A stretch of DNA of 64,000 nucleotides, taken from the NCBI GenBank assembly GCA_964571845.1, contig CAZNDM010000062.1:18258-82257 (forward strand). The letters run 5' to 3'. The notes beneath the pieces were generated by a model, which had not been told where the DNA came from, did no database searches, and worked only from the letters and a program-made list of their open reading frames with translations. The DNA comes from an uncultured bacterium (GTDB taxonomy: Bacteria; Hydrothermota; Hydrothermia; B15-G9; WFZT01). The position numbers were made by a program, and so were the translations under genes. The stretch's first letter is position 1; every line of letters begins with the position of its first letter. Shown piece by piece: positions 20,762 through 32,169 of this stretch.

Positions 20762-21075
20762 TTTCAAGCCTCCCTGTAAAATAACCCGTCCAAAGTATAA
20801 TTCAACCAAATGAACCATTCAATCGTGTTAAATACATATATCAGGGACAGAAACCCACCCATCCATCAACCACACTAAAATGCTCTTGAAAAAAGATAGC
20901 ACTCCGGATCAGCCACTTCAAAAAAGTCTGTGGCTATACGACACGAATATGACATTAGTGTCGAAAGAAACCGCTAAAAATTGTTCTGCATAAAACGGGA
21001 AGTGATCGTTTTTTCCTCCGTATTGAAGAGCTTTGATGGCTGCATTTTTGTCCCTGCAAAGTGTAAGACTGTTAG

Positions 21076-21645
21076 GAAATATTTTACCGGTGACCATTTT
21101 CCCTTTAACTTTGCGGAAAAAATCTTTTTCTCTCTTATGCTTGCGTAAGCCCATTTCGTAGCAAAAATCACACTGGCTCCTTTCCCGCTTTGTGAGAGGA
21201 ATCACTTCAAACTTCCACTCCTGCTTGCAGGAGGAACCACTACTAATCTTCTTTCCAGCAAGGCGAGAGGGATCATTTCCAATTTCCCCTCCCACACGGC
21301 GGGAGTGATCACTTCCAATCTCCCCTCCCGCACGGCGGGAGAGACCTTTCCAATCTCCCCTCCCGCACGGCGGGAGGGGACAAAGGGGAGGGCAAAAATA
21401 CCCTTCATTACTCTTCCAGTCAATTTTGTTCATTCTGCCCCCTCCTTAATCCTCCCCGACAAAGTGGGGGGAGGAGATTGATGAGCGTCCCCCACAAAGT
21501 GTTACCGTGTCCTGTGGGGGAGGGAGTCATTGGGAGCCCACAAGACATCCATTTTGTAGGGAAGGAATAAGTGTCCTCCCACAGTACCAAACACTCTGGG
21601 GAAGGAAGTTAAAAAATCACATGCTCCTTTTACCCTAAAGGATTT
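21076..21645 (+). repeat. Copy A of a three-copy composite intergenic repeat family (see copies B and C), forward orientation
   Basis: The 5' arm GAAATATTTTACCGG...CTTTGCGGAAAAAATCTTTTTCTCTCTTATGCTTGCG is shared with copies B and C. The internal array is three 35-bp units TTCCAATCTCCCCTCCCGCACGGCGGGAG(N6) at 21276-21382. The shared core is AAGGGGAGGGCAAAA...CTTCCAGYCAAT...CCTCCCCNACAAAGTGGG...AGATTGATGAG...CAGTACCAAA...AGTTAAAAAATCA..CTTTTACCCTAAAGGA. Confidence 0.6.
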
Positions 21646-21939
21646 CTCCGAAGATTCTCCTGCGAAGTATTAGCACCGGGAGGAAAATGTAGGTGGACCT
21701 TCCCGATAGGAGTAGGAATTGTGGAGATAGTATCATCACTTTAACCTCCCTCTATGACGCTAAAGGGTGTAGAAAGAATTAATCTTGAATCTCGGTGGAA
21801 ACGACACCAGAGAACCATGTGTAATGGAATCTCCGTTGCATGAATTGAAACAGTTGAAAAGAATGGGATTTGGGAACATGTGGGGGCATATGGATGTTTT
21901 TCCGATGCCCATTGGGCATTGTGGAATTTGGGAACATGT

Positions 21940-21970
21940 GGGGGCGGGACCGCTTCGCGGTCCCGCCCCC
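21940..21970. terminator. GC-rich palindrome hairpin (14-bp stem) at the 3' end of the minus-strand OMP gene
   Basis: GGGGGCGGGACCGC-TTC-GCGGTCCCGCCCCC sits 8 bp beyond the stop of 21978..22601 (-). Confidence 0.55.
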
Positions 21971-21977
21971 ACCCTCT

Positions 21978-22601
21978 TTAAAACACCAAAACCGGCCCAA
22001 GAGATATCGTGAAGATCTTTGTATTGATGTCGTTGTAATCCGTTGTCGTGAACACAAGATCGAAGTTCAGATTCAGGTCTATTCCAAGCTTCTTCCTCGG
22101 CTGCACATGGAATCCTGCACCAAAGCTCAGTCCCACCGAGTTGTGCGTCGCCTTATCCTTTGTACCCTGTCCCACATTTTTAACCTCCGTTGACACCATG
22201 TACAGACCACCTCCACCCTGGAGATAGGGCATAAGTGGCCTGTTGGGAAGTGTGAGATAGTATCTCACAATCCCTTTTATTGCCAGAATCTTGTCGTAAA
22301 CCTTCTGAACATGCGGATCTATCGTTCTGTTACCGGCTTTGTTTATCTTGTAGCTTGCATTGGATATACCAAGCATCGTGAGGATATTCTTTGTTAATCC
22401 AAAGGAGAAGAATCCTGTCAGGTTAAATCCATTTTCGCCTCCAAGTGCTATTCCCCTATCCTCAGGGAACATGTCGGGCATGTCACCAATGGGTATCCCG
22501 ATACCCGCATAACCGTGTACTGTGAATTTGTTCATGAAATTGTACGAATAAACATTTCCCGTGACCATAAACAATGCCAATATTACAAGGTATTTCCTCA
22601 T
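21978..22601 (-). CDS. Outer-membrane beta-barrel protein (OmpA-like small beta-barrel/porin family)
   Basis: A signal peptide (MRKYLVILALFMVTGNVYS) is followed by alternating amphipathic beta-strand patterning over about 200 aa, with a C-terminal aromatic residue (…LGPVLVF). Confidence 0.6.
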   Translation of the reverse strand: MRKYLVILALFMVTGNVYSYNFMNKFTVHGYAGIGIPIGDMPDMFPEDRGIALGGENGFNLTGFFSFGLTKNILTMLGISNASYKINKAGNRTIDPHVQKVYDKILAIKGIVRYYLTLPNRPLMPYLQGGGGLYMVSTEVKNVGQGTKDKATHNSVGLSFGAGFHVQPRKKLGIDLNLNFDLVFTTTDYNDINTKIFTISLGPVLVF

Positions 22602-23131
22602 TTTTTCACCTCCTTTATTTTATAAATCTTTCCAAACTCTTTCCCACCACATGCATTCTCGAAGTAGTACTGGGCGTCAAGATTTATGTTTGATACTGTT
22701 CCTGTAATTCTCATAAACACAAAGTTGTTATTTTGCATGTCAGGATGACAACCGAAGATGATATCATCCTCGTAACCATCCCCATCCGCATCAACGCAGT
22801 CGCTTAGGGCAAATATGATCATGTAATCATCTGTCGAATAACCCTCCGGTATGTTGAAAGTTACATTAGAAAAGGTAAGTCCCACCTGTACGGGATTGGT
22901 CTCAACATCCTGGTCATCCAACCTCTGATCGTGCGAGAATACAATTTCAAGGTTGTACTGCTGGAATCCTGCATGGTCCGTTATTCTACCGGAGACTGTT
23001 ACGGTATTGGTTGTGCCTCCGCCTCCGCCACCTACGCCGCCACCACCCAATCCTGTTCCCGTAACTTCAGTTGATTTACACCCTCCAAATATCAGGGCAC
23101 CAACAATTATTAGAGGCAACAACTTCTTCAT
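22598..23131 (-). CDS. Hypothetical lipoprotein with a Gly-rich linker
   Basis: A lipoprotein signal and lipobox (…ALIFGGC) are followed by a poly-Gly stretch (GGGGVGGGGGG). The stop overlaps the downstream OMP start by 4 bp. Confidence 0.5.
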   Translation of the reverse strand: MKKLLPLIIVGALIFGGCKSTEVTGTGLGGGGVGGGGGGTTNTVTVSGRITDHAGFQQYNLEIVFSHDQRLDDQDVETNPVQVGLTFSNVTFNIPEGYSTDDYMIIFALSDCVDADGDGYEDDIIFGCHPDMQNNNFVFMRITGTVSNINLDAQYYFENACGGKEFGKIYKIKEVKK

Positions 23132-23358
23132 TTTGACACCTCCTTTTTCCCTGTCTCTTTTAAAAATCTCTGGATAAACTCAATGGCTTCGTCCACACTA
23201 TGGAAAATCCTTTCCTTGACTTCTGTATCGAGGATTCTTATTAATATCCTCTCCTCGCCCGCTTCAGTTTTTATGAATTCAAGTGTGAGGAATTTCTTTA
23301 TCATCGTTCTCTATGTTACAATTTAAGTGTTACAAAAAAGTTAACACTGAGTTAACAA

Positions 23359-25521
23359 GTGATGGATGTCGAAAAAGTCATAAAGAGAGTGGAGGAGCTT
23401 TATTACGACGGGAAATTTGAGGAAGGCTTAAAACTCCTTGAAGAAATCCCTGACGAGGAAAAACCTGAGTTCGCCTATTTGCTCCTCGGTGTGGGCAATA
23501 AATTTTTGAATAGATTCTATGAAGCCGAGCTTTTTTTAAACAAAATATTGAATTCAAGTGATCCCAAAATCAGAAGTTACGCACGCTGGCAGATTGGCGC
23601 CATTGAAATTTACAAGGGTAACATGGAACGGGGGATAAATCTGCTCAAAGAAATTGAGCCTGAGATGAGGAAAACGCCACAATATGCGTCTTTTATCTTC
23701 GATCTCGTTGAAGGACTGTATTTAAGAAACGAGATTGATGAGTGCATCGAATACCTACAGAAGGCTCTAAAGTTTTCCAGAGAGAGAGGTGATTTAAACC
23801 TGATTGTTACTGCAATTTCCAACCTTGCCCTTGCTTATGATACAAAGGGGGATATCAAAAACGCCCTCACAATGTATCTTGAAGCTGCAAAAATAGCCGA
23901 AAGACAGGACATTTTACACATAGCCTGTTCAACCCTTGTAAATCTTGCTGAGCTCTATGCAGAACTCGGAGATTTTGAAAGTGCATTCAAAACCATAGAG
24001 AGAATTAAAAAGAAAAAATGTCTGAGCTATGAACCCAAACGAGGAATCACCTTATCTGGCATTGCTAAAGTGTATCTCCTGTCAGATAGATTGAAAGACG
24101 CCCGTAAGACACTCACCTTTTTACACGACATTTTACTCGAAAGGGACAACAGCGTTGAGCATGTCACCTATCATATCCTTCAAACACTTCTCAAGTTCAA
24201 AGAAGGTGCCCTTACAGATGTGGAAAACCATATTGAGTACATTCTCGAAAACTGGGAAGCTAAAGATTCGTTTGAATACAGGATAGCAAAATTTTTTAAA
24301 CTCTACATGGAGGCATATTCTGGTCGAGAAATAAATCTATCCGAAATCGAGGAAGTTGTTCACGGACTGTGCAGTGATATGATCGTAATCTCACCCCTCT
24401 ATGTTAAAGTTCTACTCGATTTCGGCAATAAAGAGAAAGCCCTCTCGGTAATGGACGAAATTTCCGATTGTCTGAGGAAAAGGTATGGCAAAACGGGATA
24501 CTTCACATTCTTCAAAGATGAGCTCAAAGAGGTTATAAGAAACCTTTCAAGGGACATAAGATCACCCGAGTTGCTGTTGAAAACCGGGACACTCCTTGCA
24601 GATCGAGAGATACTCGAAAATCTCTTCAAAAGATTTGAGATTACAGAAATTATAGACGAGCTGCGGAAAAATCCGGTCTTCCACCCACATCTCTTCCTCA
24701 CACTAAAATCCCAGCTAAAAAAAGAACCTCACAGGGAGGCGTATCACAAACTCGTGAGGGAGTACCTTTCAAAAAATTCAATATCGATAATCACATTCGG
24801 TCATCTTGAAGTTTACATTGGCCCTTACAAACTCACACCAAAAGACTGGAAAAGGCCTGTAACCCGTGATCTTATAAAATTTTTCATTGTTAACAAAAAC
24901 AAGCTCATTCCGCGTGAGGTCATTTATGAGGCACTATGGCCCGGAGAAGATCCACAGAAAACCTCAAGCAAATTCAGGGTTTACATCTCAATTCTTAGAG
25001 ATGTAATTGAGCCCTGGCTGCTCAAAGACGAAAAGCCCCGAATAATAATTTACACCGAAGGTAAGTACCTCTTTTCAACGGAAAACATCAACATAGATGT
25101 TGAGGATTTTGAAAAACTCGTTGCAGACGGCCTGAAATCCATGGACAGTGCTGAGGCGATGTACAATCTCGAAAAAGCAGTGGAACTCTACAGAGGCGAT
25201 TTCCTGGAGGACGATATCTACAGCGATTTCATTTACATTGAGAGGGAAAGATTGAGAAACATTTTCTTCCGTGCAGTCAACAGACTGAAGGAACTTTACG
25301 ATGAAAAAGGGAATACAGGGAAGGCGAGAGTCCTGCTTGATAAAGCATTTTTCGTTGATCCAACAAACGATACCGTGGCATACGATTATATCGAACTTCT
25401 TCTCAAAATAGGTGAAAGAGCCAACGCAAGGAGAATCTTGGAAATCCACAAAGAAACCCTGAAAAAGAGATACGAAATTGAACCCTCTGAGAAAATCCTG
25501 AAACTTATTGGAGAAAGCTGA
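23359..25521 (+). CDS. TPR-repeat protein with a C-terminal SARP-like module (OmpR-type winged helix + bacterial transcriptional activator domain)
   Basis: The N-terminal ~470 aa are TPR-like helical repeats. The C-terminus has ...ITFGHLEVYIGPYKLTPKDWKRPVTRDLIKFFIVNKNKLIPREVIYEALWP..., an OmpR/SARP-type winged helix. This is followed by DVEDFEKLV...LYRGDFLEDD...YEIEPSEKILKL, which matches the DnrI/AfsR activator-domain (BTAD) pattern. Confidence 0.55.
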   Translation: MMDVEKVIKRVEELYYDGKFEEGLKLLEEIPDEEKPEFAYLLLGVGNKFLNRFYEAELFLNKILNSSDPKIRSYARWQIGAIEIYKGNMERGINLLKEIEPEMRKTPQYASFIFDLVEGLYLRNEIDECIEYLQKALKFSRERGDLNLIVTAISNLALAYDTKGDIKNALTMYLEAAKIAERQDILHIACSTLVNLAELYAELGDFESAFKTIERIKKKKCLSYEPKRGITLSGIAKVYLLSDRLKDARKTLTFLHDILLERDNSVEHVTYHILQTLLKFKEGALTDVENHIEYILENWEAKDSFEYRIAKFFKLYMEAYSGREINLSEIEEVVHGLCSDMIVISPLYVKVLLDFGNKEKALSVMDEISDCLRKRYGKTGYFTFFKDELKEVIRNLSRDIRSPELLLKTGTLLADREILENLFKRFEITEIIDELRKNPVFHPHLFLTLKSQLKKEPHREAYHKLVREYLSKNSISIITFGHLEVYIGPYKLTPKDWKRPVTRDLIKFFIVNKNKLIPREVIYEALWPGEDPQKTSSKFRVYISILRDVIEPWLLKDEKPRIIIYTEGKYLFSTENINIDVEDFEKLVADGLKSMDSAEAMYNLEKAVELYRGDFLEDDIYSDFIYIERERLRNIFFRAVNRLKELYDEKGNTGKARVLLDKAFFVDPTNDTVAYDYIELLLKIGERANARRILEIHKETLKKRYEIEPSEKILKLIGES

Positions 25522-26890
25522 ATATAATCACTCCCCTCTTGGTTCCAGCATAAAGATTTCTGCCGTCAAAATAGAGAGATTTAATCACAGGAAGACTGAA
25601 CCCCGGAGTATATCTTTCAAATCCCAGATCCTTCAGATTGAGAATGTATAGCCCATCCGGTGCACCTATAAAAATTTTATCATCTGCCACAACCATAGGA
25701 TAATCAAATCCACGGGACGGTTTGAAAGGTACAGGTAGTTTATCGACAATTCCGTTTTTAAACTCCAGGATTCCAATGTCTGATAAAACATAAAGCCTGC
25801 CACCTGAAACCGCGGCTGAGTATATGGGAGCAAATTTGTTGTATTTTCTTTGAGGCTGTAATTCTCTCGAATAGATTTTGCCGTCCATCAGAAAAAGGGG
25901 AGAATCTTCATAAATCACCATTTTCGATATTTCCAAAGGAATTTTCAGTCTGGACAGAACATTGCCAGCAGGTGTTACCTCAAGCAATCTCCCCGACATT
26001 TGAACGAAGAGCAAGCCATCGAATACACCCAGGAGTTTCCCATTGTCCAGGAATTTCCTGATCCACCTATTCTTCAGAACAAAAATTCCACATCTGCTGC
26101 TAAAATAAAGGGAACTGTCGAGTGGCGAGATCATCTCGACATCCGGGCAATCTGTGCGTATAAAGCTCCAGAACCTGCCATTCTTCAATGCAATACCACC
26201 GTTTCCGGCAATAAAGATCTTCCCGCTAATTCCAGTAATACAGTTGACCTCAGAAAAGGGGAGTCCGATCTGTATGGAGTCTCGGACAATTTTCAGGTTA
26301 AAATCGTACCTGTAAATTCCCTTTTTATCCGTCCCCACCCAGAGAGTGTTGAAATCTCGGTAAAAATAGGTAAAGTTGACCTTGCCAGCCAGTGGATCAT
26401 AGAAAAAGAACGGGGCAAGGAATGCCACCTTCAGACTATCCCTCGTCAGTGAATTGAGCCGCCCCACCCAGACAGTACCACTTTCAGGCTTTCTATTCCC
26501 CAATCTGAACCCTGAAGTTGTGAAGGCGATTATTTCTCCGTTGTTCTCCACATAAATTTTATCACAGCATATACCGAGAGAGGTCGCAGGCCCGGCAGAG
26601 GCAAGAAAAGTTACATCCTCAGAAGTGGTCGTCCATCTATAGAGATTCCCAAAAACATCAATGAAAAACACACTCAGGAGATTCTGCATCACAGCAAATT
26701 TAACGGGAGTTTCCGTTAAAACGGATCTCTCCATACGGTTGTCGAAAAGGTTGTAAGTGTAGATACCACCAGGAGTTGAAACGAGCAATCTGTTGTTTTG
26801 CCTGACCAGAGAATTTATGTGCAAAAATTCACCGATTTTCGAGACATTTGCTGAGTGGATGGAAAATGCCAGAAGAATACTAAAAATCAT
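25505..26890 (-). CDS. Hypothetical secreted beta-propeller-like protein
   Basis: A signal peptide is followed by repeated ~45-aa segments rich in G/Y/F/D (GGIYTYNL..., GKIFIAGNGGIAL..., GRLYVLSDIGILEF...). These resemble the Reg_prop/two-component-regulator propeller repeats. No catalytic motif is seen. Confidence 0.4.
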   Translation of the reverse strand: MIFSILLAFSIHSANVSKIGEFLHINSLVRQNNRLLVSTPGGIYTYNLFDNRMERSVLTETPVKFAVMQNLLSVFFIDVFGNLYRWTTTSEDVTFLASAGPATSLGICCDKIYVENNGEIIAFTTSGFRLGNRKPESGTVWVGRLNSLTRDSLKVAFLAPFFFYDPLAGKVNFTYFYRDFNTLWVGTDKKGIYRYDFNLKIVRDSIQIGLPFSEVNCITGISGKIFIAGNGGIALKNGRFWSFIRTDCPDVEMISPLDSSLYFSSRCGIFVLKNRWIRKFLDNGKLLGVFDGLLFVQMSGRLLEVTPAGNVLSRLKIPLEISKMVIYEDSPLFLMDGKIYSRELQPQRKYNKFAPIYSAAVSGGRLYVLSDIGILEFKNGIVDKLPVPFKPSRGFDYPMVVADDKIFIGAPDGLYILNLKDLGFERYTPGFSLPVIKSLYFDGRNLYAGTKRGVIIFSFLQ

Positions 26891-28674: not shown

Positions 28675-31600
28675 TCACTTCAGTATCACAATCTTCCTCG
28701 TCTTACTGTAATTTCCAGCCTCAATGCTCAAAAAGTACACTCCTCCACGAATCTTTTCCGTACTCCAGTCGATACTGTGGTTTCCTGCCTCCATCCTTCC
28801 CTCGTACAACTTTGACACAACCCTGCCACTCACATCATACAGTCTAATTTTGACATCCGTTGCCGCTGGAATAACAAATGAGATCTTCCCTCTTCTAACC
28901 ACTGGATTCGGTGTTACATCGAAGAAGAACTTTACGGGTTTCAGAGCACCCTCACCCACGCCCACTGTCGGGGGCAATGTCGTGAATTTGATGGCTTTAC
29001 CTGCTGATATTCCAGTTGCGAGTCTATCCGAGACACCGTCATAGTAAATCTGGATTCCGTCTGTTTCTGAAGCGTTTTCAATTCCTGTCGTGAAATCATC
29101 CTGCATTGGATCAGATAGATACTGGAAAACAATTTCCCCGTCACCTGTAGGTGTTGTGTAGTACATTGGATCGTAGAGGAGCACCTGAAATGTCTCCACC
29201 TCGTTTGAATGGGCAAAATGAGGCACCTGATACCATTCCACGATAAAAATGTGGTTGTCAGAGTCATAGTAATATGCGACCTGGCCACCTCTTGAGGGAT
29301 TGAGGTCGTCCCACAGGGGAGCAATCATATTTGATGGACCATCACTGTTGGGTATGCCAGAGTTGCTGAAATCTCTTGCATTCTCACTGCCCATAGCAAG
29401 GTTTCCATTTGATCCGATGGTAATCTGGGTGAATGATGCACCGTAATAGTTAAATGTGAATGGGAGATTAACGAGCTGGTCATCGTCGTCTCCGAGCTGG
29501 ATGACCGTTCCGCTACCGCCAGCCGCAGGTGCAATTTCTATCCAGTTGAAAACCGGTGCCGGTGAATAGGAAGAGTCGTTGTTCTCGTAAGCATAATAAC
29601 CGTAGCTATCAGGTCCTGATGGATCATTCACCGTCATCTGACCTATTGTGAGTGTGTAATTAATACTCTTGGTATAACCGGATGAATCCACGAGTGTAAT
29701 TGTCAGTTCTGCACTATGCTCTCTCGGTGTGGATGGAGATGCCTGAACAAAGAACATTGTGTCGCTCACCTCGCCTCCGTTGGCTGGAATAGAGGGGATA
29801 AAGGCGGTCGAATCAAGGACCTGGAGAAATGTGTCCTGTGTGGACAGAGAGACTGAGACATTGCCGGCGTCCTGTGTCCCAATATTCCTAAGAGTTACGA
29901 GAAACCTTCCACTTTCACCGGGATCGATCACCCCATTTCCCGACTCATCAAGAACGGAGATTCCGGTAAAGCTAACAACCACACCTTCAAGCGGCAGGTC
30001 CTTTTCAATGGTGAGATCGTCGATATACCATCCGTCCCGTGTAATTGAGCCGTCAGAGGTAATGAGAAATCTGATGTACACGGTGGTTGAACCCACAAAG
30101 GGCGAGAGATTGACAAAAACCTCCTCCCATGTGCTTTGCGAGCCGTTAACAGAAGCGAGATTTGTCCATTCGCCATTGGGGTCTGTCGCAGCCTGGACAT
30201 AACCATAGTCAAAGCCACTTTCAAATTCATACCTCTGCCAGAAGTGGAGTCTTGCGAAGTAGGCGTCAGAAAGATCTATTGGTGTCGCAAGCATTGCATA
30301 GTAATTTGCGTTGTTTGGATACTGACCATTGGGGGAATCGGTGAGACTTCCATTCCCCGAATGGGCGTAAGATGTGGTGATTCCCCAGCTACCTGTTAAT
30401 ACCCAATCGGGAAGAGAAGACTCAAAGTCCTGTACATACCAGGGGTAGTAAGTGGGCTGTCCTATGACAACCGTAATCGTGTCAACTTTGGTGTATCCGG
30501 TCATGGATGTGTCACTACCTGTAATTGTGATGACAAATTGAGCGGCGAGACCGGCACGCCATGTTGAATCAACTGAAAATGAGAATCCATCTCCTGAAAC
30601 TATAGAGTCATGCGGGATATCACCGTAAAATGAGGAGTTGTCCGTGATCGTGATAAGCGGGTTATCGGTTGATATCGTGGCATTCACATTGAGGACATCA
30701 AGTCCCAGGTTTCTAAGAGGAATGGTCATTGTTACACTCTCTCCTGGATCCGGCATACCATTACCATTTCCAGACGCATCATCATACACAGGTTGAAGTA
30801 ATCTCAGGTAAGGAGCGTCAAGAGTCGGAGTTGATTCAATGACTTTCAGGGCATTTATACGACCCCACCCATAGTCGTTGTTGGGATAGGTATTGCCTGC
30901 TGGATGATCGACACCATAGTTTGTGAGAATATCATAAATGGTACTGTAGTCGAGAGATGGATTGAGTTCAAACATAAGGGCAATGACACCGGTTACATGG
31001 GGAGTGGCCATGGATGTTCCATCCCAGCTTTCGTAACCGCCGCCGGGTGTGCTTGATCTAACATTGACTCCTGGAGCTGAAATATCGGGCTTGATAAAAT
31101 TCCAGTCTGGTCTTGACCAGAGTGTCGTATCTGACCAGGGGTACTGGTTGGGAGCCGGTCCCCTCGAGCTAAAGCTCGCAATATTATCATTAATGTCTGT
31201 TGCTCCAACTCCGATAACATTTGGAAAGTTACCGGGTGTTCCAGCAGATCCACTACCGGGACCAGAATTACCGCTGGCAAAAACCGGGATTATGTCAAAC
31301 TCGTGCCAGGCCCTCACAAACGGTAAAAAGGTCGTGTCTGTTTCATCCGTACTACCCCATGAATTAGACACAGCCTTTATGTCCACACCTGAATCGACTT
31401 TCAAGGACACGAACCACTGGAAACATTCGATAATATCCTGATCCTGCCCGCTTCCTCCGGAATTAAATGCCTTGGCAGATGCAATCTGTGCCCTGTAAGC
31501 CACGCCAATGTCGTTTGTAAACGGACCAGGTCCATCACCACCAGCAATTGTCCCGGCCACATGTGTTCCGTGGCCGTGATCGTCATACGGGGTCGTCCTG

Positions 31601-32169
31601 TCATTCACAGCATCAAAGAAATAACCTGAGAAGTTGCCAGATAAGGCAGGGTGTGATGGATCTATTCCAGTGTCCATTGTTCCGACTATTACACCGTCTC
31701 CTGAGAGGCCATAGGCAGACCAAACTGAATCTGCTTTTATTTTCGTGATATTCCATTCAACAGACTTCTCCTGGGGTATGTCTTTAAAAGACTTTTTGGG
31801 CATAATGATGTGTCTCTCACGCACAACATCGACGAGAGCGACATCTTCTCTCTTCGCAAGCTCGACAATTACCTCTGGTGTGGCTTTGACATATAGCATG
31901 TTCACAAGCCAAAAACTCTCATACTCGGCAACATCTTCGGAACTCAGGAATGATATGACATCCCTCTGTGAATTCCTTGCGACGGTTTTCAGGACTTCGG
32001 CTTTGGCTTTGTAGCCTTTAATACCTGAAAGGTCCGCCTGCTGTTTCATCCAGACAAGAGCCTGAATACTCTCTCCAGGCCCTGCCTTGCTCAGTTTCTC
32101 CATCATGGCATCAGAAAGTTTCCCTGCATACAGGGAAGTTACCATGACCAGTGCAAGCAGATACTTCAT
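28675..32169 (-). CDS. Large secreted subtilisin-like serine protease (peptidase S8) with an I9 propeptide, extra beta-rich domains and a T9SS C-terminal sorting domain
   Basis: There is a signal peptide. The S8 motifs are DTGIDPSHPAL (Asp), HGTHVAGTIAGGDG (His) and GTSMATPHVTGVIALMF (Ser). The C-terminus GGVYFLSIEAGNYSKTRKIVILK is a T9SS CTD. Its N-terminal half is paralogous to 6532..9402. Confidence 0.85.
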   Translation of the reverse strand: MKYLLALVMVTSLYAGKLSDAMMEKLSKAGPGESIQALVWMKQQADLSGIKGYKAKAEVLKTVARNSQRDVISFLSSEDVAEYESFWLVNMLYVKATPEVIVELAKREDVALVDVVRERHIIMPKKSFKDIPQEKSVEWNITKIKADSVWSAYGLSGDGVIVGTMDTGIDPSHPALSGNFSGYFFDAVNDRTTPYDDHGHGTHVAGTIAGGDGPGPFTNDIGVAYRAQIASAKAFNSGGSGQDQDIIECFQWFVSLKVDSGVDIKAVSNSWGSTDETDTTFLPFVRAWHEFDIIPVFASGNSGPGSGSAGTPGNFPNVIGVGATDINDNIASFSSRGPAPNQYPWSDTTLWSRPDWNFIKPDISAPGVNVRSSTPGGGYESWDGTSMATPHVTGVIALMFELNPSLDYSTIYDILTNYGVDHPAGNTYPNNDYGWGRINALKVIESTPTLDAPYLRLLQPVYDDASGNGNGMPDPGESVTMTIPLRNLGLDVLNVNATISTDNPLITITDNSSFYGDIPHDSIVSGDGFSFSVDSTWRAGLAAQFVITITGSDTSMTGYTKVDTITVVIGQPTYYPWYVQDFESSLPDWVLTGSWGITTSYAHSGNGSLTDSPNGQYPNNANYYAMLATPIDLSDAYFARLHFWQRYEFESGFDYGYVQAATDPNGEWTNLASVNGSQSTWEEVFVNLSPFVGSTTVYIRFLITSDGSITRDGWYIDDLTIEKDLPLEGVVVSFTGISVLDESGNGVIDPGESGRFLVTLRNIGTQDAGNVSVSLSTQDTFLQVLDSTAFIPSIPANGGEVSDTMFFVQASPSTPREHSAELTITLVDSSGYTKSINYTLTIGQMTVNDPSGPDSYGYYAYENNDSSYSPAPVFNWIEIAPAAGGSGTVIQLGDDDDQLVNLPFTFNYYGASFTQITIGSNGNLAMGSENARDFSNSGIPNSDGPSNMIAPLWDDLNPSRGGQVAYYYDSDNHIFIVEWYQVPHFAHSNEVETFQVLLYDPMYYTTPTGDGEIVFQYLSDPMQDDFTTGIENASETDGIQIYYDGVSDRLATGISAGKAIKFTTLPPTVGVGEGALKPVKFFFDVTPNPVVRRGKISFVIPAATDVKIRLYDVSGRVVSKLYEGRMEAGNHSIDWSTEKIRGGVYFLSIEAGNYSKTRKIVILK

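Follow-up and report, generated by a model that had tools for sequence, protein, structure and literature searches.

What does a SARP regulator control, and through which DNA site, when its gene lies outside the Actinobacteria and its DNA-binding module comes last in the protein rather than first? Reviews present SARPs as regulators that are specific to actinomycetes, switch on antibiotic gene clusters, and have their DNA-binding module at the N-terminus; they bind two or three heptameric direct repeats, often three, in classical 11-bp units (PMC10972967). The gene that raises the question lies in a stretch of 64,000 nucleotides (hereafter the window) from contig CAZNDM010000062.1 of an uncultured bacterium (assembly GCA_964571845.1, positions 18,258 to 82,257 of the forward strand; GTDB lineage Hydrothermota, WFZT01). 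The evidence tips modestly toward a model in which the product of this gene would bind 11-bp-phased repeats in the region upstream of its own gene, a candidate operator, and control divergent genes for exported proteins. The parts of the regulator gene are as follows (Pfam domain coordinates are given in the numbering of a 720-aa frame).

23362 to 25521, + strand: regulator gene, predicted TPR sensor plus SARP output, 719 aa (open reading frame list, ortholog alignment, database protein P0001)
23362 to 24771, + strand: N-terminal TPR/MalT-like superhelical region, aa 1-470, the predicted sensor (TPR_MalT, TPR_12, AlphaFold2 helices, Foldseek)
23926 to 24471, + strand: four conserved cysteines, C189 (23926-28), C220 (24019-21), C337 (24370-72), and C370 (24469-71)
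24781 to 25086, + strand: predicted OmpR-type winged-helix DNA-binding domain, aa ~474-575 (Trans_reg_C, PhoB/OmpR, and AfsR/EmbR profile matches)
25093 to 25506, + strand: BTAD (PF03704), aa 579-716, 54.5 bits against a gathering threshold (GA) of 22.1, profile positions 1-141 of 146

The list of open reading frames (ORFs) in the window contains a 720-aa frame at 23359 to 25521 (+), beginning with GTG. This GTG is probably not the start codon and was discarded as a candidate, since no GTG occupies that position in the orthologs. The upstream regions of six orthologs align at the ATG at 23362 without a preceding GTG, and P0001, which is 100% identical to the window protein, has 719 aa. Thus, the true start is almost certainly the ATG at 23362.

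By homology, the C-terminal third of the protein contains every element of a SARP module: an OmpR-type winged helix and, after it, BTAD. The first-pass annotation, made from the sequence without database searches, had read the protein as about 470 aa of TPR-like repeats followed by these two domains, and Pfam, a PDB-profile search, and an AlphaFold2 model bear this out in content and order. In the Pfam scan itself, BTAD and the TPR families score above GA, whereas Trans_reg_C (aa 503-553) reaches 25.2 bits, about 1 bit under its threshold of 26.2. The winged helix is nevertheless judged to be real, because a profile of the module matches the AfsR, EmbR, and PhoB/OmpR domains. This profile, an alignment of the C-terminal ~280 aa of 16 family members, was searched against PDB sequences and matched the SARP domain of AfsR (8hvr_I) with an E value of 3.4e-27 over a single stretch (profile positions 22-273 to chain positions 40-279) and EmbR (2fez) with an E value of 3.6e-23. 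These two are the best non-designed PDB matches; PhoB, CovR, ArlR, and other OmpR-type DNA-binding domains match at E values of 1e-6 to 1e-4. The recognition-helix segment R539-R546 is almost invariant. NCBIfam gives weak partial matches only; among them, the SARP part is matched by AfsR and BagI/FevR and the TPR part by MalT.

The N-terminal region matches TPR_MalT (PF17874) at aa 123-216 (49.5 bits, GA 45) and TPR_12, whose best stretch is aa 122-181 (52.3 bits, GA 30.1); the significant Pfam TPR matches are confined to about aa 120-220. The AlphaFold2 model, built on the alignment of the six orthologs, has 26 helices (~13 hairpins) over residues 3-471 with a pLDDT of roughly 70-95. Confidence is high over the first 300 residues and moderate (~70-90) onward to 470. 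After the TPR array, the secondary structure in the model is a small beta-sheet, three helices, and a hairpin, and then the helical BTAD. A Foldseek search of the full-length model against the PDB returns generic TPR superhelices only and nothing sensor-specific. Neither Pfam nor NCBIfam contains a match to an ATPase domain, and no AAA, NB-ARC, or NACHT domain is present among the 27 matching Pfam families. Pfam also gives no match to Response_reg or to a GerE/LuxR helix-turn-helix (HTH), the C-terminus being Trans_reg_C plus BTAD.

Close full-length relatives are few: 6-7 clusters at >=50% identity, with six clusters at 50-100%. All come from WOR-3 metagenome-assembled genomes (MAGs) wherever a lineage is given, and the statement that the gene lies outside the Actinobacteria stands. 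Deeper branches, at ~27-32% identity, are represented by P0018/P0169, P0019, and P0020. The Bacteroidales loci L009-L011 were considered as members of the family and rejected; they encode ordinary REC + Trans_reg_C response regulators sharing a peptide word.

The region between the regulator and the gene that diverges from it contains the candidate binding site. Its features, and the genes of the divergent operon, are these.

23312 to 23357, no strand: conserved 46-nt block, probably cis-regulatory, in the 57-bp divergent intergenic region (six-ortholog alignment)
23340 to 23356, no strand: GTTAAC-N5-GTTAAC, two palindromic hexamers at 11-bp phase, the candidate operator
23329, 23340, and 23351 (starts), no strand: heptamers GTTACAA, GTTAACA, and GTTAACA at 11-bp phase
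23329 to 23335, no strand: third, imperfect repeat GTTACAA, 11 bp upstream of the first GTTAAC and invariant in six orthologs
23315 to 23321, no strand: further GTTACAA (sequence)
23314 to 23322, + strand: predicted extended -10-like element TGtTACAAT for the regulator gene (TGTTAMAAT in six orthologs)
23313 to 23318, - strand: predicted -10-like hexamer TAACAT of the leftward operon, separated by 7-8 nt from the start codon of the 58-aa ORF
23128 to 23304, - strand: conserved 58-aa orphan protein, first gene of the divergent operon (translation, ortholog loci)
22598 to 23131, - strand: 177-aa lipoprotein, lipobox FGGC, whose start overlaps the stop of the small ORF
21978 to 22601, - strand: 207-aa outer-membrane beta-barrel protein (OMP_b-brl, 32.7 bits, GA 28.7)

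The GTTAAC-N5-GTTAAC pair had been pointed out, at exactly these coordinates, as a possible operator, and comparison with other loci strengthens that idea. Across six orthologs whose proteins are 50-70% identical, 36 of the 46 positions of the block are invariant, and the consensus is TATGTTAMAATTTARGYGTTACAAAAWWGTTAAC-N5-GTTAACA. Over the 2.1 kb of aligned coding sequence from these six genes, only 3.2% of the third codon positions never vary. Invariant runs there reach at most 5 nt, and any 45-nt stretch contains 28 invariant positions or fewer. The length of the intergenic region is also fixed, at exactly 57 bp in five of the six orthologs. In locus L007 (5850-5995; also L006, 1-140), the regulator and the small ORF are 143 bp rather than 57 bp apart, and a 30-codon mini-ORF running from 5934 (-) lies at the position of the small-ORF start in other lineages and overlaps the start of a 55-aa ORF; the arrangement resembles an insertion in which the former start codon was retained.

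The motif also accompanies distant members of the family. GTTAAC-N5-GTTAAC is present in the divergent intergenic region upstream of P0018/P0169 (L016, 3922-3938; L101, 9965-9981) and upstream of P0020 (L019, 4976-4992; also L020), in GC-rich genomes where the flanks of the motif are unrelated to those in the window. In the 22 kb of L101 it occurs once, against 0.01 expected. The 64-kb window contains no second exact copy, and sites with up to two mismatches number three against 1.9 expected, which is nothing beyond chance. In addition, the motif is not found in 83 other loci, ~70 of which encode other SARP modules. Because a 12-base motif follows the regulator family across such divergence, it is best explained as the family's own candidate binding site. 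Like published SARP sites, the candidate site consists of two to three repeats at 11-bp phase beside a -10-like element; its repeat unit is a palindromic hexamer, unlike the sites of Streptomyces SARPs.

The position of the repeats relative to the leftward operon would fit what is known of SARP activation. In the SARP family, activation goes through contacts with RNA polymerase (σ region 4, the β flap, and the α CTD). AfsR binds repeats located 8 nt upstream of the -10 and overlapping the -35; its protomers line up next to each other along a single DNA face and replace σ region 4 at a poor -35 (PMC11301090). The leftward strand of the window clade, L019 (TATATT), and L016 (AAATAT) has a -10-like hexamer at a distance of 10 nt from the proximal repeat. 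In five of the six orthologs, TAACAT is separated from the ATG of the 58-aa ORF by 7-8 nt of variable sequence without a Shine-Dalgarno sequence, unlike the downstream lipoprotein gene, which has AGGAGGTG. Judged from these elements, the leftward layout resembles that of a promoter that depends on a SARP and yields leaderless mRNA.

The first gene of the leftward operon was overlooked in the first-pass annotation; it starts 57 bp from the regulator and precedes the lipoprotein gene. A gene is called at this position in every orthologous locus, and the encoded proteins are 48-59% identical. The 58-aa protein is highly charged and has neither a signal peptide nor a hydrophobic segment. It has no match in Pfam or NCBIfam, and a profile search returned the same lineage only; its family comprises seven clusters, most of them on contigs equal in size to those that carry the regulator.

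The genes that follow the small ORF change from lineage to lineage. In the window, L001, and L007, the small ORF is followed by a lipoprotein gene (lipobox LAGC in the L007 ortholog) and an outer-membrane beta-barrel gene. The OMP_b-brl match and the FGGC lipobox agree with the first reading of this pair. In L012, L014, and L015, the small ORF is followed by a Peptidase_C11 protein with a lipobox. Opposite P0018/P0169 (L016/L101) lies the gene for a 1146-aa signal-peptide protein with faint LVIVD repeats, and opposite P0020 (L019) that for a protein of >2053 aa with a type IX secretion system (T9SS) sorting domain. Thus, in all four lineages the divergent genes encode exported (signal-peptide or lipobox) proteins, which lends some support to the suggestion that the protein is an envelope or secretion regulator. 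The accompanying suggestion that it is lineage-specific holds for the close family only. The 207-aa beta-barrel protein also has a weak likeness to the T9SS protein PorG, far below threshold (NCBIfam NF052316, 17 bits against a cut-off of 130).

In the model that these observations favor, the regulator would be a cytoplasmic one-component transcription factor whose TPR/MalT-type superhelix receives a signal or binds a partner and whose C-terminal SARP module, by homology, binds DNA. Two or three SARP modules would sit side by side on GTTACAA/GTTAACA/GTTAACA (23329-23357). To the left, these repeats would fill the -35 region and end 10 nt upstream of TAACAT (23318-23313), the geometry with which characterized SARPs replace σ region 4 to activate. 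The regulator would thereby switch on an operon for the 58-aa protein, the lipoprotein, and the outer-membrane beta-barrel; in sister lineages the controlled operon would contain a C11 lipoprotein peptidase in place of the last two. To the right, the extended -10 of the regulator gene overlaps the leftward -10 on the opposite strand, and the regulator mRNA would start near 23329, placing the repeats within its first ~30 nt. Because the repeats would lie just downstream of the regulator's own -10, and this -10 overlaps the leftward one, occupancy of the site may also repress the regulator gene.

The signal could involve cysteines. None of C189, C220, C337, and C370 varies among the six orthologs or in the P0018/P0169 clade (32% identity), and these proteins, with 4-6 cysteines per 720 aa, have hardly any others. 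One pair is kept in each of two deeper branches, the first in P0019 and the second in P0020, and TPR-SARP proteins farther removed contain none of the four. The pattern suggests that the TPR sensor may contain a metal, Fe-S, or thiol-redox site made of these four residues. It is improbable, though worth stating, that such a cysteine-based signal sets SARP binding to the palindromic 11-bp-phased hexamers and so flips RNA polymerase between the face-to-face, overlapping -10s, turning the regulator off and the leaderless operon for the small protein and the envelope proteins on. If it were true, a regulon, an operator, and a signal would be defined for the first time for a SARP-type regulator from outside the Actinobacteria, and thousands of uncharacterized sensor-SARP proteins would gain a template.

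Several observations weigh against the proposed binding and control. The winged helix, with Trans_reg_C just under the Pfam threshold in the window protein, is modeled by AlphaFold2 at low confidence (pLDDT 28-52, aa 475-578), as expected from an alignment of only six sequences. P0019 and L025 have the same architecture and lack the motif. The GTTAAC pair is also an inverted repeat, extended by 1-4 bp in some loci, which would suit a symmetric dimer of another family. Within the block, the N5 between the two hexamers is the sole variable spacer among the six orthologs; the other spacers are all conserved, so part of the conservation may reflect promoter elements rather than contacts with the regulator. 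The promoter hexamers were picked by eye, and a consensus scan finds no σ70-type promoter in the intergenic region. Finally, the distance from motif to regulator start is 5-8 nt in the window clade and L019, versus 19-37 nt in L016/L101. Since the geometry on the regulator side differs in the P0018 clade and no consensus promoter is found, the direction of each regulatory effect is less certain than the general model.

It is unlikely, but deserves serious weight, that the GTTAAC pair and the block around it belong to another regulator, a symmetric dimer, or simply amount to two overlapping core promoters, and that the TPR-SARP protein acts elsewhere in the genome. GTTAAC is itself palindromic, and in L007, L012, and L014 the pair is extended to TTGTTAAC..GTTAACAA. 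Furthermore, the conserved block also spans the -10-like elements on both strands, and the link between protein and site is at present drawn from sequence. However, the motif accompanies the regulator gene across three clades that share ~27-32% identity and differ greatly in GC content, and it is seen nowhere else in the 64-kb window, the 22 kb of L101, or the 83 other loci. The 11-bp phasing and the third in-phase repeat also match published SARP sites (PMC10972967).

The small ORF suggests another possibility, RRNPP-like sensing of a peptide or partner, in which the 58-aa product, as ligand or anti-activator, would bind the TPR domain and so act back on the regulator. A TPR regulator does adjoin a small ORF that is strictly co-distributed with it, and this ORF leads the putative target operon regardless of the genes that follow. 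Nevertheless, this reading seems rather improbable. A charged protein without a signal peptide or hydrophobic segment is not a secreted pro-peptide, and the relatives P0018 and P0020 keep the motif with no adjacent small ORF. RRNPP regulators, moreover, combine an XRE-type HTH with a secreted-peptide gene; the window protein has a C-terminal OmpR-type domain instead, and its neighbor encodes a protein without a signal sequence. An intracellular partner role for the 58-aa protein is possible and compatible with the model of SARP binding at the repeats.

A third explanation places the motif in RNA: a 6-bp GUUAAC-N5-GUUAAC hairpin in the 5' leader of the regulator mRNA, before the start codon, would govern translation or stability. 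This hairpin is part of the RNAfold minimum-energy structure of all six leaders, and in the window clade and L019 its stem ends 5-8 nt before the ATG, the position of a ribosome-binding site. However, the folding energies are no better than those of shuffled sequences (z -1.3 to +0.3), and the stem is strictly invariant, without compensatory change, even in GC-rich genomes. Rfam gives nothing credible in 22500-26000, and in L016/L101 the pair lies upstream of the likely -10, so that it is probably not transcribed rightward. An RNA element is accordingly very improbable.

It is scarcely credible that the DNA-binding domain has decayed and lost its function, leaving a TPR scaffold. The sub-threshold Trans_reg_C score and the low AlphaFold2 confidence over aa 475-578 would fit, but no part of the protein is better conserved across the family than the winged-helix segment, where W496, R498, P499, K506, F507, W526, P527, V540, Y541, R546, E550, and P551 do not vary although overall identity is 27%. 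Relatives also clear the Pfam threshold (Trans_reg_C, 27.1 bits in P0018 and 29.4 bits in P0020), and the profile matches solved OmpR/PhoB and SARP DNA-binding domains.

How unusual is a SARP module at the C-terminus? The first-pass annotation had taken the architecture to be inverted. A phmmer search with the C-terminal 280 aa against 1.84 billion representative proteins gave 15,883 matches at E<=1e-3, and the position of the module was scored locally for the ~160 closest. In 101 of these, the module is C-terminal with >=150 aa in front of it; it is roughly stand-alone in 35, N-terminal in 21, and in the middle or otherwise placed in three. Thus, sensor first and SARP last is the dominant layout among relatives of the window module, and the exhaustive search together with Pfam scans of the matches eliminates the idea of a rare or inverted architecture. 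What is specific to the WOR-3 MAGs is the close full-length family, not the domain order.

The domains that precede C-terminal SARP modules are TPR, REC, PAS, GAF, or STAND-ATPase, and the proteins fall into size classes. A class of ~400 aa includes PAS-SARP and REC-SARP proteins (e.g., P0036 and P0037, respectively). A class of 716-762 aa has ~25 proteins, and nine of ten sampled are TPR + Trans_reg_C + BTAD, the tenth being a GAF-SARP protein. A class of ~1000-1130 aa combines a STAND/MalT-like ATPase with TPR and SARP (e.g., P0007, P0011, and P0017). No sensor-first TPR + SARP protein has a known, tested role, and a literature search turned up neither a study of a TPR-first SARP nor one of regulation in WOR-3. 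The prospect that the protein would turn out to be a common family with a known role has therefore come true by half, in the layout and not in the role. Most near relatives of the window module are C-terminal in sensor proteins of other bacteria, unlike the picture of SARPs given in reviews, and no function has been tested for any of these proteins.

Comparison with characterized regulators places the protein between several families. The small SARPs ActII-ORF4, DnrI, and RedD, and the SARP domain of AfsR (PDB 8hvr/8jke/8k60), have the same output module of winged helix plus BTAD. However, in the small SARPs, which are actinomycete proteins, the module is N-terminal, whereas in the window protein, from WOR-3, it is C-terminal (aa ~474-716 of 719) behind a 470-aa sensor. 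SARPs of Streptomyces are found in a biosynthetic-cluster setting, and the window regulator has envelope and secreted-protein neighbors. Large SARPs of the AfsR type (SARP, NB-ARC ATPase, TPR) also unite a SARP module and a TPR array in one polypeptide, but in the reverse order and with an NB-ARC domain; the window protein has no NB-ARC or other P-loop ATPase, and the NCBIfam model of the AfsR family aligns with it over the SARP part only.

MalT and other STAND regulators, like the window protein, have a MalT-like TPR sensor followed by a C-terminal DNA-binding domain. They differ in having an N-terminal P-loop NTPase, where the window protein has helical repeats from residue 3, and MalT itself ends in a LuxR-type HTH instead of a SARP module. 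The STAND-TPR-SARP relatives of ~1000-1130 aa, which are among the closest SARP modules, share the terminal Trans_reg_C + BTAD, and one of them, P0017, aligns over 63% of the window protein. The window protein thus looks like the sensor and output half of a MalT-like STAND protein in which a SARP module replaces the LuxR HTH.

EmbR of Mycobacterium tuberculosis (2fez) also couples a SARP module to an input domain, an FHA domain, but places the input C-terminally. REC-, PAS-, and GAF-SARP proteins have an N-terminal input domain ahead of a C-terminal SARP module, and so does the window protein, whose input domain is a TPR superhelix rather than FHA, REC, PAS, or GAF. The REC-wHTH-BTAD response regulators are those of COG3947, the 'SAPR family', and P0044 is labeled as COG3947 ('SAPR family') by JGI. 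The N-terminal receiver of these proteins is present in the relative P0037 and absent in the window protein.

The regulator, then, shares its module and its probable mode of DNA binding with the SARPs; it differs from every characterized member in its sensor-first layout, its phylum, the palindromic repeat unit, and its putative target genes. The locus is a compact test case, with a control region of fixed length (57 bp), a candidate operator conserved over great distance, and a small, defined set of exported candidate targets. Its value is as an experimental entry into the large, unstudied class of sensor-SARP proteins outside Streptomyces, not as a surprising new principle.

The remaining neighbor of the regulator is on its downstream side.

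25505 to 26890, - strand: convergent gene for a 461-aa exported tandem beta-propeller protein, whose 3' end overlaps the regulator gene by 17 nt

The protein, which had been called a secreted beta-propeller from the outset, has no Pfam or NCBIfam match. Its AlphaFold2 model is all-beta behind an N-terminal hydrophobic helix, and the best Foldseek matches are the tandem beta-propellers of BT4663, BT4673, and PorZ (E ~1e-13), in keeping with the original call. BT4663 and BT4673 contribute the periplasmic sensor domains of Bacteroides hybrid two-component systems, and PorZ is a T9SS component. The gene is syntenic in close orthologs only, where it is always followed by a YjeF-type NAD(P)HX repair gene, and it may or may not be tied functionally to the regulator.

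Farther along, a 1164-aa subtilisin-like protease (28675-32169, -) has a C-terminal segment typical of T9SS sorting domains, and its L001 ortholog matches Peptidase_S8, InhA-like_MAM, and Por_Secre_tail. A T9SS-type protease is consistent with a T9SS-bearing relative of the FCB group.

On the other side of the divergent operon, a stretch of ~1.1 kb (20819-21977) without convincing genes separates an alcohol-dehydrogenase-like gene from the outer-membrane protein gene; the orthologous gap in L001 is only ~480 bp. It contains a 36-bp tandem repeat in 3.4 copies (21254-21376, consensus TCCCGCACGGCGGGAGAGATCATTTCCAATCTCCCC). G-rich repeats with a period of 35-36 are also present upstream of the paralog P0019 (L017, 4650-4950).

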